64,000 bases of DNA from the NCBI RefSeq assembly GCF_013122565.1, contig NZ_CP053258.1; one strand, given 5' to 3'. Source of the stretch: Escherichia coli (GTDB lineage: Bacteria; Pseudomonadota; Gammaproteobacteria; Enterobacterales; Enterobacteriaceae). Position numbers and translations under genes: made by a program. The notes beneath the pieces were generated by a model. That model was not told the DNA's origin, searched no databases, and worked only from the letters and a program-made list of their open reading frames with translations. Each line of letters opens with the position of its first letter. Within the stretch, counting starts at the first letter, position 1. Below, piece by piece: positions 37,189-46,525 of this stretch.

Positions 37189-37593
37189 ATGGATCAGGTC
37201 GTTGTTTTTCAAAAGATGTTTGAGCAAGTGAGAAAAGACCAAAACTTTTCCTGGTTTTATTCAGAATTAAAACATCACCGTATTGCACATTACATTTATT
37301 ATCTGGCTACGGATAACATCAGAATTATTACTCACGATGACACGGTTTTGTTATTAAGAGGAACCAGGAACCTGTTAAAAGTTAGTACGACCAAGAATCC
37401 TGCCAAAATAAAAGAGGCCGCATTGCTTCATATTTGCGGAAAATCTACATTTCGGGAATACTGTTCAACACTGGCAGGCGCGGGCGTTTTCCGGTGGGTT
37501 ACTGATGTTAATCATAACAAACGCAGTTACTACGCCATTGATAATACGCTTTTATATATTGAAGATGTAGAAAATAATAAACCATTAATCTAG
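37189..37593 (+). CDS. ycgX: uncharacterized protein YcgX
   Basis: 134-aa ORF; synteny between bluR and iraM. Confidence 0.8.
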   Translation: MDQVVVFQKMFEQVRKDQNFSWFYSELKHHRIAHYIYYLATDNIRIITHDDTVLLLRGTRNLLKVSTTKNPAKIKEAALLHICGKSTFREYCSTLAGAGVFRWVTDVNHNKRSYYAIDNTLLYIEDVENNKPLI

Positions 37594-37796
37594 CTAAAGT
37601 TGGAAGCTTAAGAAATGCTTCATAATTCAGTAAGGCATTAGCATAATGGAACTAAAAGTGCAGAGACTATTCCTATAGATCTTATACTGCCTTTTTATTG
37701 CCATCCATAGATGTTCAGTAGACCAATACTATAAAATTGATATTGAAATGTGCTCCCTTGCTTATTGATACATTATTTTATACGGTTAGTTTTCCT

Positions 37797-37832
37797 CTAA
37801 AAACAACGGGCGTGCTATACGCCTGTTTCAAG
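37797..37832. repeat. terminator-like hairpin, imperfect copy of the icd terminator at 39091..39119
   Basis: AAAAACAACGGGCGTGCTATACGCCTGTTTCAA vs AAAAAAACGGGCGTGTTATACGCCCGTTTCAA ~1.3 kb away. Confidence 0.6.
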
Positions 37833-37969
37833 GCTTAACTCATATGAATTTTTCTTTATTTTTCATCACGTTATAATTTTTAACCAGCAACGAATTATCC
37901 TTCACTATAAAGTTCAATAGTTGAGACCTTATCCTCATGTCATGCGTATATTCATCATAATGATCCTTA

Positions 37970-37998
37970 GACAAAAAAAGCCAACCATGATGGTTGGC
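37970..37998 (-). terminator. orphan rho-independent terminator on minus strand
   Basis: GCCAACCA-TGA-TGGTTGGC hairpin, followed on the minus strand by TTTTTTT; no annotated minus-strand gene ends here. Confidence 0.5.
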
Positions 37999-38220
37999 AA
38001 AGTGGCACAAAGTAGCATAAAGGCTATGCTTTAATTACAGGAGGTTCAGACATTTGAATGTATATCGTTTTATCTAAACAGAACTAAAACGAAGTGAATG
38101 ATTTCATTTTTTCACTAAATCTCATTTTGTTTAATCTCTGTTGAGATTCCTTGTTTTAAATTTTGCTTTATATAAACAATAGCTTTATTTTTTAAATTGA
38201 TTTTTAGGTAATATAGAAAA

Positions 38221-38475
38221 ATGCAAAATCAAGGAATGAATATCCAAAGCAAACTATACGCATATTTAAATAAATATGACACTCGTCTTACAGAAGAAAA
38301 AATTGCGATTGAGAAAGCCATTAGAGAGTTACATTTTAGCAGCGAGCATGTTGATAACAAGAAAATAATACTGAAGTTACTATCATTTTTATCATATACA
38401 GATGATGTTGTCGAAAAAGACATTATCAGAAATGCATTGGAAGTGGTTCTTCTTTTTACTTCCGATGATATTTAA
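38221..38475 (+). CDS. AriR/YmgB-family small protein (paralogue of ariR)
   Basis: 84-aa ORF; C-terminal NKKIILKLLSFLSYTDDVVEKDIIRNALEVVLLFTSDD aligns with Ari[39 protein letters not shown]; weak RBS. Confidence 0.65.
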   Translation: MQNQGMNIQSKLYAYLNKYDTRLTEEKIAIEKAIRELHFSSEHVDNKKIILKLLSFLSYTDDVVEKDIIRNALEVVLLFTSDDI

Positions 38476-38717
38476 TTGAATTCATTAATTTTATTATCAT
38501 AATTATTTTCCGGACACTACATTTTTTACTTATGTTTAATAATAACCACTGCGAATGAGGGACGCACAGGTATATTTTTCTCACACCTGTGATGTAAAAA
38601 CACGATAAAATCCAAATAAAGAATAAAATTTGCGACCCCACCAGATGGATTGCATCACACATTATTATTCAAAATATTTATCAACATCATTAATAGCCGA
38701 AGGATAAGACATAACAA

Positions 38718-39041
38718 ATGAAGTGGATAGTAATTGACACGGTAATTCAACCTACATGCGGTATATCTTTTTCAGCCATATGGGGTGATATGAAAATGAT
38801 CGTCTGGTATCAATCTACTATATTTCTCCCTCCTGGCAGTATATTTAAACCGGTTAAATCTGGTATTATCTTTAAGGATAAAGAATACCCTATTACTATT
38901 TATAACATCGCACCATTCAACAAGGATTTATGGAGTTTACTCAAAAGCAGTCAAGAGTGTCCTCCAGGAGAAAGCAAAATAACAAATAAATGTTTTCATA
39001 ATAGTTGCATTATAAAAATATGCCCATATGGGCTCAAGTAA
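38718..39041 (+). CDS. iraM: anti-adaptor protein IraM (RpoS stabiliser)
   Basis: 107-aa [15 protein letters not shown]...ICPYGLK; matches my recollection of K-12 IraM; position adjacent to icd 3' end. Confidence 0.8.
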
Positions 39042-39090
39042 AGGGTTTCATATAAATATGCTCGATATGCTATTAATAATACCTACATAA

Positions 39091-39119
39091 ATAAAAAAAC
39101 GGGCGTGTTATACGCCCGT
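39091..39119 (-). terminator. rho-independent terminator of icd
   Basis: ACGGGCG-TGTTATA-CGCCCGT hairpin followed on minus strand by TTTTTTTAT, 25 bp downstream of icd stop. Confidence 0.8.
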
Positions 39120-39143
39120 TTCAATATTTAAAACATGGAGAGA

Positions 39144-40394
39144 TTACATGTTTTCGATGATCGCGTCACCAAACTCTGAACATTTGAGCAGCTTAGCGCC
39201 TTCCATCAGACGTTCGAAGTCATAAGTTACGGTCTTCGCGTTGATTGCGCCTTCCATACCTTTAACAATCAGGTCTGCGGCTTCAGTCCAGCCCATATGG
39301 CGTAACATCATCTCTGCGGAGAGAATAATAGAGCCTGGGTTAACTTTGTCCTGACCGGCATATTTCGGCGCAGTACCGTGGGTGGCTTCAAACAGGGCGC
39401 ATTCGTCACCGATGTTTGCGCCAGGGGCGATACCAATACCACCAACCTGCGCTGCCAGGGCGTCAGAAATGTAGTCACCGTTCAGGTTCATACAGGCGAT
39501 AACGTCGTATTCAGCCGGACGTAGCAGGATCTGTTGCAGGAACGCATCAGCGATCACGTCTTTAATGACGATCTCTTTGCCGGTGTTCGGGTTTTTAACT
39601 TTCAGCCACGGGCCGCCGTCGATCAGTTCACCGCCAAACTCTTCACGCGCCAGCTGGTAGCCCCAGTCTTTAAACGCGCCTTCGGTGAACTTCATGATGT
39701 TACCTTTGTGCACCAGGGTCACAGAGTCACGATCGTTAGCAATTGCGTATTCGATCGCTGCACGAACCAGACGTTTGGTGCCTTCTTCCGAACACGGCTT
39801 AATACCGATACCGCAATGTTCCGGGAAACGAATTTTCTTCACGCCCATCTCTTCACGCAGGAATTTAATCACTTTCTCGGCGTCGGCAGAGTCAGCTTTC
39901 CATTCGATACCCGCATAAATGTCTTCCGAGTTTTCACGGAAGATAACCATATCGGTCAGTTCAGGGTGTTTAACCGGGCTTGGAGTGCCCTGATAGTAAC
40001 GTACCGGACGCAGGCAGATGTAGAGATCCAGTTCCTGACGCAGGGCAACGTTCAGAGAGCGAATACCGCCACCTACTGGAGTGGTCAGCGGGCCTTTAAT
40101 GGCAACGCGATATTCACGAATCAGATCAAGGGTTTCAGCAGGCAGCCAGACATCCTGACCATAAACCTGTGTGGATTTTTCACCGGTGTAAATTTCCATC
40201 CAGGAGATTTTACGCTCGCCTTTATAGGCTTTCTCGACTGCAGCGTCGACCACTTTCAGCATGGCTGGGGTTACATCTACACCGATTCCATCACCTTCAA
40301 TGTAAGGGATAATCGGATTTTCAGGAACGTTGAGTTTGCCGTTTTGCAGGGTGATCTTCTTGCCTTGTGCCGGAACAACTACTTTACTTTCCAT
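39144..40394 (-). CDS. icd: NADP-dependent isocitrate dehydrogenase
   Basis: 416-aa ORF matching K-12 Icd; intact 3' end with no prophage junction. Confidence 0.97.
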
Positions 40395-40980: not shown

Positions 40981-41430
40981 ATGGATACTACCGAAGAACG
41001 CAATGGAACATATTTCTACAGAGGACACCCGAACCTGTCCAAAATAGAACTACTCAACGTCATATTCCTTGAAGAATTCTGTAAGGAATTGGGGATTGAT
41101 TCGGTATCAGGTGCAGCAATCTTATCTGGTCAACCTTGGCTGGGTACAAGAGCGAAGCCGGAAGGGGCAACCCTGGGAACAAGTGTTGTCTCAAAGTATG
41201 CGCGTATACTGATGAGAGATGCACGCATGCCTTTTGGTATTTCTGTTCATACAACAGTGGGTGTAAGGATGCAGAAATCTAATAAGCTTGCTGCAATTAT
41301 CGCTCGTTGGGTCCCGTGGATTGGTTGGGCTTCACTGTCGATGAGTCTTTACAGGATTTCGACTCGTACCCAGGAAAAATACAATCTGATTGCCAAACCT
41401 CAAGACCGTATTAAGTGGACTTCCTTCTAA
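40981..41430 (+). CDS. hypothetical basic protein (149 aa), first gene of an islet gene pair
   Basis: ORF from track; net positive charge; AGA/AGG codons rare in backbone; stop overlaps start of next ORF (TAATG). Confidence 0.6.
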   Translation: MDTTEERNGTYFYRGHPNLSKIELLNVIFLEEFCKELGIDSVSGAAILSGQPWLGTRAKPEGATLGTSVVSKYARILMRDARMPFGISVHTTVGVRMQKSNKLAAIIARWVPWIGWASLSMSLYRISTRTQEKYNLIAKPQDRIKWTSF

Positions 41431-41765
41431 TGGCGACAACAATCACAGACGAAGTTTTAGCACTGTTCCGTGATGAGATTCCAGGTTATCAGGATGATCA
41501 CGGGAAGGAAATTCCGTTAGAACTGGACTCTGATTTGTTCGACTATCCACGAGATGATTTAGAGGACGCTATACGGAAATACAAAGAGAGGTTTGGGATT
41601 AACCTGGATAATCTGGAATGGTCTTTGTACCTTCCGTGGGAGTCTGCACCATTGCTTCAACGATGGTTCAAGCTCAAGCGGGAAGAGGTAGAAACAACAC
41701 GTTTACCGTTAACTGTACGGATGTTTGCAGAATCAGCAGAAGCGGGAAAATGGCTGTATCAGTAG
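41430..41765 (+). CDS. hypothetical acidic protein (111 aa), second gene of an islet gene pair
   Basis: ATG 41430 overlaps upstream stop (TAATG coupling); strongly acidic (MATTITDEVLALFRDEIPGYQDDHGKEIPLELDSDLFDYPRDDLEDA); track ORF begins at in-frame ATG 41415. Confidence 0.6.
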   Translation: MATTITDEVLALFRDEIPGYQDDHGKEIPLELDSDLFDYPRDDLEDAIRKYKERFGINLDNLEWSLYLPWESAPLLQRWFKLKREEVETTRLPLTVRMFAESAEAGKWLYQ

Positions 41766-46508: not shown

Positions 46509-46525
46509 AGTTTATTTAATGTTTA
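46509..46525 (+). promoter_or_regulatory. PhoP box of the phoPQ autoregulated promoter
   Basis: AGTTTA-TTTAA-TGTTTA direct repeat ~60-75 bp upstream of phoP start. Confidence 0.8.

Follow-up and report, generated by a model that had tools for sequence, protein, structure and literature searches.

A YmgB/AriR-family gene between ycgX and iraM

The window that we analysed, a stretch of 64,000 nucleotides of Escherichia coli DNA, carries an additional gene of the YmgB/AriR family between ycgX and iraM. The features of this interval, together with the paralogue used for comparison, are as follows.

33661..33927, minus strand: ariR (ymgB), the comparison paralogue, in the ycgZ-ymgA-ariR-ymgC operon (ORF list; Pfam YmgB, 90.3 bits)
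37189..37593: ycgX, the upstream neighbour of the ORF (DUF1398 match)
37990..38034, plus strand: homologue of ymgK, a 14-codon small ORF of K-12, upstream of the PhoP-box-like repeat (annotation of the K-12-like locus; alignment)
38128..38144, plus strand: PhoP-box-like direct repeat TGTTTA-atctc-TGTTGA (TGTTTAATCTCTGTTGA), 77 bp upstream of the ATG of the ORF
38157..38162, plus strand: putative -10 hexamer TAAATT, 12 nt downstream of the repeat, with a predicted start near 38169
38221..38475, plus strand: YmgB/AriR-family paralogue (ORF list, Pfam, BLASTP, AlphaFold/Foldseek, dN/dS, exact-sequence look-up)
38273..38696: segment of about 424 bp absent from K-12-type E. coli (three-way alignment with pairwise gap placement)
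38476..38717, plus strand: spacer of 242 bp between the ORF and iraM, with no plus-strand terminator
38718..39041, plus strand: iraM, encoding anti-adaptor IraM (NCBIfam NF007393, 169.9 bits; 94% identical to the K-12-like IraM)

The ORF opens with ATG and encodes a protein of 84 amino acids, MQNQGMNIQSKLYAYLNKYDTRLTEEKIAIEKAIRELHFSSEHVDNKKIILKLLSFLSYTDDVVEKDIIRNALEVVLLFTSDDI, whose translation contains the string quoted in the preliminary description of this locus. That description had read from the sequence an additional AriR/YmgB paralogue adjoining iraM and about 4.3 kb from ariR itself. The coordinates agree, and the likeness to AriR proved significant in a profile search: Pfam PF10798 (YmgB) matches the ORF over profile positions 2-59 of 59 (57.8 bits, with the gathering score at 22.3; E=9.9e-16). 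BLASTP aligns the protein with the AriR of the window at 38% identity over 73 amino acids (E=5e-17), and phmmer aligns it with the sequence of the YmgB crystal structure, 2OXL (E=8.8e-11). The window ariR occupies the same position as the annotated ariR in the loci of LHM10-1 (L001) and the K-12-like JCL301 (L002).

The exact protein is already deposited as WP_171459484.1 (QJU24514.1), which RefSeq names "biofilm development regulator YmgB/AriR family protein", and homologues in complete genomes are named alike. This is the name of the family and not "AriR". NCBIfam holds no model for the protein. The papers that our searches found on ymgK, ymgL, iraM and the YmgB family deal with the K-12 genes only, with no mention of the paralogue. 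The databases thus already assign the gene to its family, of which it is a so far uncharacterised member; it does not represent a new kind of system. A weak Shine-Dalgarno sequence, TAGGT, precedes the ATG at a distance of 12 nt. The DNA of the ORF is only 27% G+C, in a region of 27-33%, and an 84-codon frame is unlikely to remain open by chance in DNA of this composition.

An AlphaFold2 model, computed from a 27-sequence family alignment, has a mean pLDDT of 86 and four helices (residues 3-17, 20-39, 46-59 and 63-83). Foldseek matched this model best, and among PDB entries alone significantly (the next has E>1), to 2OXL_A, with an rmsd of 0.5 A over 59 columns, a target-normalised TM score of 0.93 and 41% identity. 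The comparison is between a crystal structure and a prediction, and the predictor had probably seen 2OXL in training. Nine residues (K47, I50, L53, L57, R70, L73, T80, D82 and D83) are invariant in the family alignment, and the C-terminal T-x-D-D motif of the family is present in the ORF protein. R70 aligns with R74 of AriR, a surface residue on the last helix that is needed for SpoT binding; the R74G variant still activates Rcs (PMC10704370). AriR/YmgB itself is a small dimeric helical protein and an activator of the Rcs phosphorelay (PMC3509220), for which homodimer formation, Rcs activation (mucoidy, curli repression) and SpoT-dependent ppGpp accumulation have been established experimentally (PMC3509220, PMC10704370).

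The protein resembles AriR of K-12 (2OXL, PF10798) in Pfam family, in length (84 against 88 amino acids), in predicted helical fold, and in a last helix that is nearly conserved, IIL.L....L....D......D.IR..LE.VL..T.DD. The two proteins differ in other respects. They are only 36-38% identical; the ORF lies at ycgX-iraM, whereas ariR belongs to the BluR-controlled ycgZ-ymgA-ariR-ymgC operon; a predicted PhoP box precedes the ORF, and a BluR or MarA site ariR; and the gene occurs in about 0.5% of E. coli genomes, while most carry ariR. Lying outside the ycgZ-ymgA-ariR-ymgC/bluF/bluR setting, with 38% identity and with the true ariR separately present in the window, the ORF is not the orthologue of ariR. 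YcgZ and YmgA are small helical proteins of the same chromosomal neighbourhood and figure in the same Rcs-connector literature as AriR (PMC3509220), but they are only 14-17% identical to the ORF in alignment, and the ORF clearly belongs with YmgB rather than with either of them; YcgZ matches the Pfam YmgB model weakly, with 25.8 bits.

The nearest relatives beyond the protein's own cluster are AriR-family proteins of Enterobacter, Klebsiella, Salmonella, Cedecea, Erwinia/Pantoea and Winslowiella, at 35-45% identity. They share its length class and C-terminal motif, but none is more than 45% identical. Because the ORF is as far from E. coli AriR (36-38%) as from these proteins of other genera, it represents an old separate lineage and not a recent duplicate of ariR. 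Of the suggestion that the locus holds a second copy of AriR, the family paralogy stands and the recent copy does not. From these comparisons the ORF appears to be a distinct YmgB/AriR lineage restricted to E. coli.

Selection, two old haplotypes and a deletion

The reading frame is kept in related genomes (dN/dS 0.06-0.15), and the gene is under purifying selection. Neither of the two outcomes that the preliminary description named as refuting, an unconserved frame or a non-significant profile alignment, was observed. A longer allele of 86 amino acids occupies the same locus in other E. coli with 73-75% nucleotide identity to the ORF, and between the two dS is 0.80, dN 0.12 and dN/dS 0.15; over the C-terminal half alone, which forms the core of the YmgB domain, dN/dS falls to 0.07. 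The closer allele of LHM10-1 gives a dN/dS of 0.055, and the range across the ORF comparisons is 0.055-0.16. With dN/dS at 0.15 and dS at 0.80, an unselected frame would not have stayed open and conserved. The ORF is a real, selectively maintained E. coli gene.

It is also a rare gene, present in 29 of 5,426 complete E. coli genomes. The 84-amino-acid type accounts for 10 of the 29 carriers, with 93-94% nucleotide identity to the window, and the 86-amino-acid type for the other 19. Full-length annotation is found in 28 of the 29, and one of the ten of the 84-amino-acid type, in wlxctx60, is frameshifted. Truncated forms also exist in databases. In word-index and exhaustive HMMER searches all database members of the ORF's cluster were labelled E. 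coli. The exhaustive search, over 1.84 billion cluster representatives, recovered the protein's own cluster at E=4e-43, then only fragments, and after a gap matches from E=6e-8 with at most 45% identity. Paralogue-specific peptide patterns, applied to one genome per species across about 100,000 species, found no relative.

The 86-amino-acid haplotype, as seen in MFDS1022581 (L003) and Z0117EC0005 (L004), carries an IraM variant that is 70-71% identical. Downstream of iraM these two loci have trkG and a transposase fragment in place of icd. A dS of about 0.7-0.8 between the window and this haplotype is far above normal levels for E. coli core genes and suggests that the polymorphism is very old or that introgression has occurred. 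In E. coli the gene pair persists as two haplotypes of ancient divergence.

Whether K-12 has an annotated gene at this place had been left in doubt. It does not: the K-12-like locus of JCL301 has only ymgL (36 amino acids), ymgK (14 amino acids) and a deletion scar, and its ycgX-iraM interval, 699 bp long, is shorter than that of the window (1,124 bp). K-12 retains the region upstream of the paralogue, its ATG and about the first ten codons, and the alignment resumes about 25 bp before the ATG of iraM; the codons from about 10-18 onward have been lost, along with most of the spacer. The end points of the deletion are ambiguous (left, 38246-38273; right, 38688-38696), and a short, imperfect repeat, ATATTTAAATA / ATCATTAATA, flanks it. 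K-12 keeps the start of the gene, and the intact haplotypes separated long ago; the K-12 state therefore arose by deletion, and the window state not by insertion.

The deletion junction is found in 3,868 of 5,426 genomes. It is identical in all seven deletion alleles sampled, which are otherwise up to about 10% diverged, as expected of one old event, and our comparison points to a single old deletion as the cause of gene loss in K-12-type E. coli. About 99% of iraM-carrying E. coli are without the gene, so any function that it has is dispensable.

The deletion leaves behind an unannotated ORF of 22 codons, MQNQEINILMNHIKYRGIRHNK (L002 6629..6697), whose TGA overlaps the ATG of iraM as ATGA; its counterpart in the window is 38221-~38272 joined to ~38697-38720. 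This relic frame is open and of constant length in seven of seven diverse deletion alleles. In these alleles no selection on the 22-codon peptide is evident, most substitutions being nonsynonymous; if the relic ORF matters, it would be the act of translation that counts and not the peptide. A variable G-run (G8, G11, GAAGGGG, GGGGAG) precedes the relic ATG at the Shine-Dalgarno position. It is possible that the relic serves as a translationally coupled leader for iraM in K-12.

We also considered ymgK (MFSKLAQSSIKAMF) as the N-terminal remnant and rejected it, because it lies about 190 bp upstream and the true remnant abuts iraM. Haplotype C has a 1-nt difference that destroys the reading frame of ymgK. 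The homologue of ymgL (window 37646-37678) meets an in-frame TAG after 10 codons and is not conserved as a protein.

Several further features surround the locus. On the minus strand, an intrinsic-terminator-like hairpin, GCCAACCATCATGGTTGGC followed by TTTTTTT, lies at 37980-37998. It is kept in both intact haplotypes, apart from the ymgK-disrupting 1-nt change of haplotype C, which falls in its loop, and it has decayed in the K-12 type. The minus-strand RNA 38120..37970 folds with z=-2.9, and region 37970-38120 on this strand may be an unannotated small RNA. An Rfam search of 37400-39200 returned only sub-threshold chance matches near the icd terminator. A second terminator-like hairpin of the minus strand, GGCGTATAGCACGCC followed by CGTTGTTTTT, lies at 37809-37823 in the interval between ycgX and the ORF, with no obvious gene to terminate. 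Farther downstream, between icd and rluE, is a plus-strand gene pair that encodes an STM2901-family protein (40981-41430; 149 amino acids, NCBIfam 156.8 bits) and an overlapping ORF of 116 amino acids (41415-41765), annotated as DUF1493 in LHM10-1. The K-12-like locus, in which about 170 bp separate icd from rluE, lacks this accessory insertion.

A candidate PhoP-box promoter and the linkage with iraM

A search of the 64 kb window with the pattern KGTTKA-N5-KGTTKA gave a sole zero-mismatch match, at 38128-38144, where 0.09 were expected. Nine of 100 shuffles contained at least one match to the pattern, and one match is not strong statistics by itself. The reference layout of a PhoP box is (T/G)GTTTA-N5-(T/G)GTTTA at the -35 position, upstream of a -10 hexamer. 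By this measure the putative box has a perfect first half-site, and its second half-site departs from the strict GTTTA consensus once, with G instead of T at hexamer position 5. A positive control in the K-12-like locus, the known box of the autoregulated phoP promoter, was found with the search pattern as well. That box reads GGTTTATTTAATGTTTA in the K-12-like locus (L002 12969-12985) and AGTTTATTTAATGTTTA in the window (46509-46525), where one position of the first half-site departs from consensus.

In PhoP-activated promoters the box takes the -35 position and the -10 hexamer stands where TAAATT stands here. A generic sigma-70 scan did not call this hexamer (38157-38162). Conservation across alleles provides a further view of the site. 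The block GAT(T/C)CCTTG(T/C)TTTAAATT is invariant or nearly so in seven aligned alleles from three haplotypes, and the block that spans box and hexamer, ACTAAAT.TCATTTTGTTTA..CTCTGTTGAGAT.CCTTG.TTTAAATT, is nearly invariant in the three. The box is kept in haplotypes B and C, while the flanking intergenic DNA of the 86-amino-acid haplotype is only 66-71% identical. In deletion alleles the second half-site reads (C/T)ATTGA. In K-12-type alleles the homologous box lies 163 bp upstream of the iraM ATG and is the sole plus-strand PhoP-box-like site in the ycgX-iraM interval at two mismatches or fewer. Expression of iraM is PhoP-dependent in K-12 and in Shigella (PMC5740661; PMC10948607; PMC5775216). 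Transcription of the ORF would most likely start at a predicted PhoP-activated promoter with the box at 38128-38144 and the -10 hexamer at 38157-38162.

The responses of this neighbourhood may be wider than PhoP. In K-12, AZT induces ymgK 96-fold, iraM 39-fold and ycgZ-ymgA-ariR-ymgC 32-57-fold (PMC11228462). As ymgK lies upstream of the box and is induced together with iraM, another promoter or a region-wide H-NS derepression is suggested.

Downstream of the ORF, a terminator scan of the spacer (38476-38717) found no plus-strand site. A promoter-like match at 38476-38503 in the spacer is not conserved in haplotype C. An inverted repeat at 38566-38592 was considered as a conserved spacer hairpin and rejected, as it is not conserved in L001 or L003. 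In the carriers that we inspected, of both intact haplotypes, the gene is always directly upstream of iraM. The two genes have also diverged in step: between haplotypes dS is 0.67-0.75 for iraM and 0.80 for the paralogue, whereas bluR, 2 kb away, is 97.8% identical, which shows that the pair has long moved as one. With the same strand, no intervening terminator and kept adjacency, the ORF and iraM look like members of one operon and are probably co-transcribed. The arrangement is most simply read as follows: what is called the iraM promoter was ancestrally that of the AriR-like gene, with iraM as the second cistron.

IraM is a PmrD-like connector that sequesters RssB (bioRxiv 10.1101/2023.01.07.523045). 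The ORF product is like connectors of the IraM/PmrD type in being a small protein, in its predicted PhoP-box promoter and in its proposed role of linking PhoQ/PhoP to other signalling. It differs in fold, all-helical YmgB against PmrD-like, and the families are unrelated.

The pair does not behave as a general mobile cassette, an idea that we rejected because prophage iraM-like genes lack a YmgB-family ORF upstream. In three E. coli loci (L006-L008; L006 is O157:H7 SS17) and in E. albertii NBRC 107761 (L009), homology begins only about 3 bp before the ATG of iraM. These iraM-like genes, of about 60-72% identity, are lambdoid prophage cargo (L006 3501-3824, L007, L008, L009) and have the Q/tRNA/stx2c region on one side and the SASA esterase and lysis genes on the other; in SS17 the iraM-like gene directly adjoins the Shiga toxin 2c genes. 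As neither K-12 iraM nor the prophage genes have an AriR-like partner, IraM does not need one. A 558-bp contig labelled Oceanospirillum linum (NZ_MTSD02000045.1, coverage ~1) encodes 47 residues 94% identical to E. coli IraM and is almost certainly E. coli contamination of that assembly.

A possible second connector, and what its loss would mean

We regard it as fairly probable that the ORF is a functional four-helix YmgB/AriR-family gene and the first of a PhoP-driven two-gene unit with iraM. The analysis establishes that the gene is real, its family and fold, purifying selection, its rarity, the deletion and the conservation of the PhoP box; control by PhoP, a transcript shared with iraM and the molecular target are what we infer from these. 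By analogy with AriR, from family membership and position, the protein may take part in Rcs or RpoS signalling. PhoQ/PhoP, on sensing low Mg2+, acid or an osmotic signal, would then activate the promoter upstream of the ORF. Transcription would proceed through the ORF and across the terminator-free 242-bp spacer into iraM, and two small connector proteins, the AriR-like protein and IraM, would be made together. IraM, which blocks RssB, stabilises RpoS, and the AriR-like protein, if it acts as AriR does, would bind the Rcs phosphorelay and/or SpoT through Arg70, the counterpart of AriR Arg74. In K-12 and most E. coli, the gene went with the deletion of about 424 bp, while iraM would have stayed under the control of the same promoter.

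It is tempting to go further and speculate that the iraM promoter ancestrally served a bicistronic connector operon, that the deletion uncoupled RpoS from the Rcs and SpoT-ppGpp outputs, and that translation of iraM in K-12 is now coupled to the 22-codon relic. Taken as a whole, we consider this extension rather unlikely.

The gene may instead be a functional regulator in its own right, residing in an H-NS-silenced island, under its own control and acting on a target unrelated to PhoP, IraM, Rcs or SpoT, so that its adjacency to iraM would reflect no more than a common history in an AT-rich patch acquired horizontally. The AT-rich region (27-33% G+C) and its setting among phage-related genes, with homologues of ycgX in prophages (PMC3509220), would suit such an island, as would the induction of the whole neighbourhood by AZT in K-12; the identity to AriR of only 36-38% and the movement of iraM-like genes without an AriR-like gene also fit an independent role. 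The footprint of PhoP box and -10 hexamer is nevertheless kept upstream of the ORF in haplotypes otherwise 66-71% identical, no terminator precedes iraM, the dS values of the two genes match, and the arginine that contacts SpoT in AriR is conserved along with the whole last helix. We therefore see an independent regulator as a minority possibility.

Strict adjacency and co-divergence with iraM in both intact haplotypes could also mean that the AriR-like protein has IraM or RssB as its physical partner, for example to modulate anti-adaptor activity or solubility, and does not act on Rcs or SpoT. The AriR-like protein and IraM are both small proteins of the connector type, IraM being PmrD-like (bioRxiv 10.1101/2023.01.07.523045). 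Such a partnership seems improbable, since IraM of K-12 stabilises RpoS without an AriR-like protein (PMC5740661; PMC10948607) and the IraM-like genes of prophages and E. albertii have no partner.

That the gene is a dispensable relic nearing loss, with no present function in carrier strains, strikes us as similarly improbable. It has indeed been lost by deletion in 3,868 genomes, is frameshifted in wlxctx60 and truncated in some database entries, and has a weak Shine-Dalgarno sequence. A decaying gene would hardly show a dN/dS of 0.15 at a dS of 0.8, of 0.055 between close alleles and of 0.07 in the C-terminal half, or intact annotation in 28 of the 29 carriers. That the frame is open by chance and its likeness to AriR spurious, a reading for which nothing but the small size of the ORF speaks, is already refuted by the Pfam (E=1e-15), BLASTP (E=5e-17) and 2OXL matches and by purifying selection.

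Our analysis adds to an existing family assignment a single old deletion, a scar in the iraM leader with its relic ORF, a conserved PhoP-box-like promoter and two old haplotypes. Should the protein have no effect on Rcs, SpoT or RpoS, it would be one more uncharacterised paralogue, already correctly named by annotation pipelines. AriR/YmgB and IraM are connectors that feed stress signals into RcsB, SpoT/ppGpp and RpoS. If the AriR-like protein is made from a PhoP promoter together with IraM, carrier strains would have an extra output of PhoQ/PhoP that is absent in K-12, and its loss would be a natural rewiring of a regulatory network by a single deletion of 424 bp. The same history would explain the structure of the K-12 iraM leader, a deletion scar with a relic start codon and a stop codon overlapping the iraM ATG, which is relevant to the design of iraM reporter fusions.
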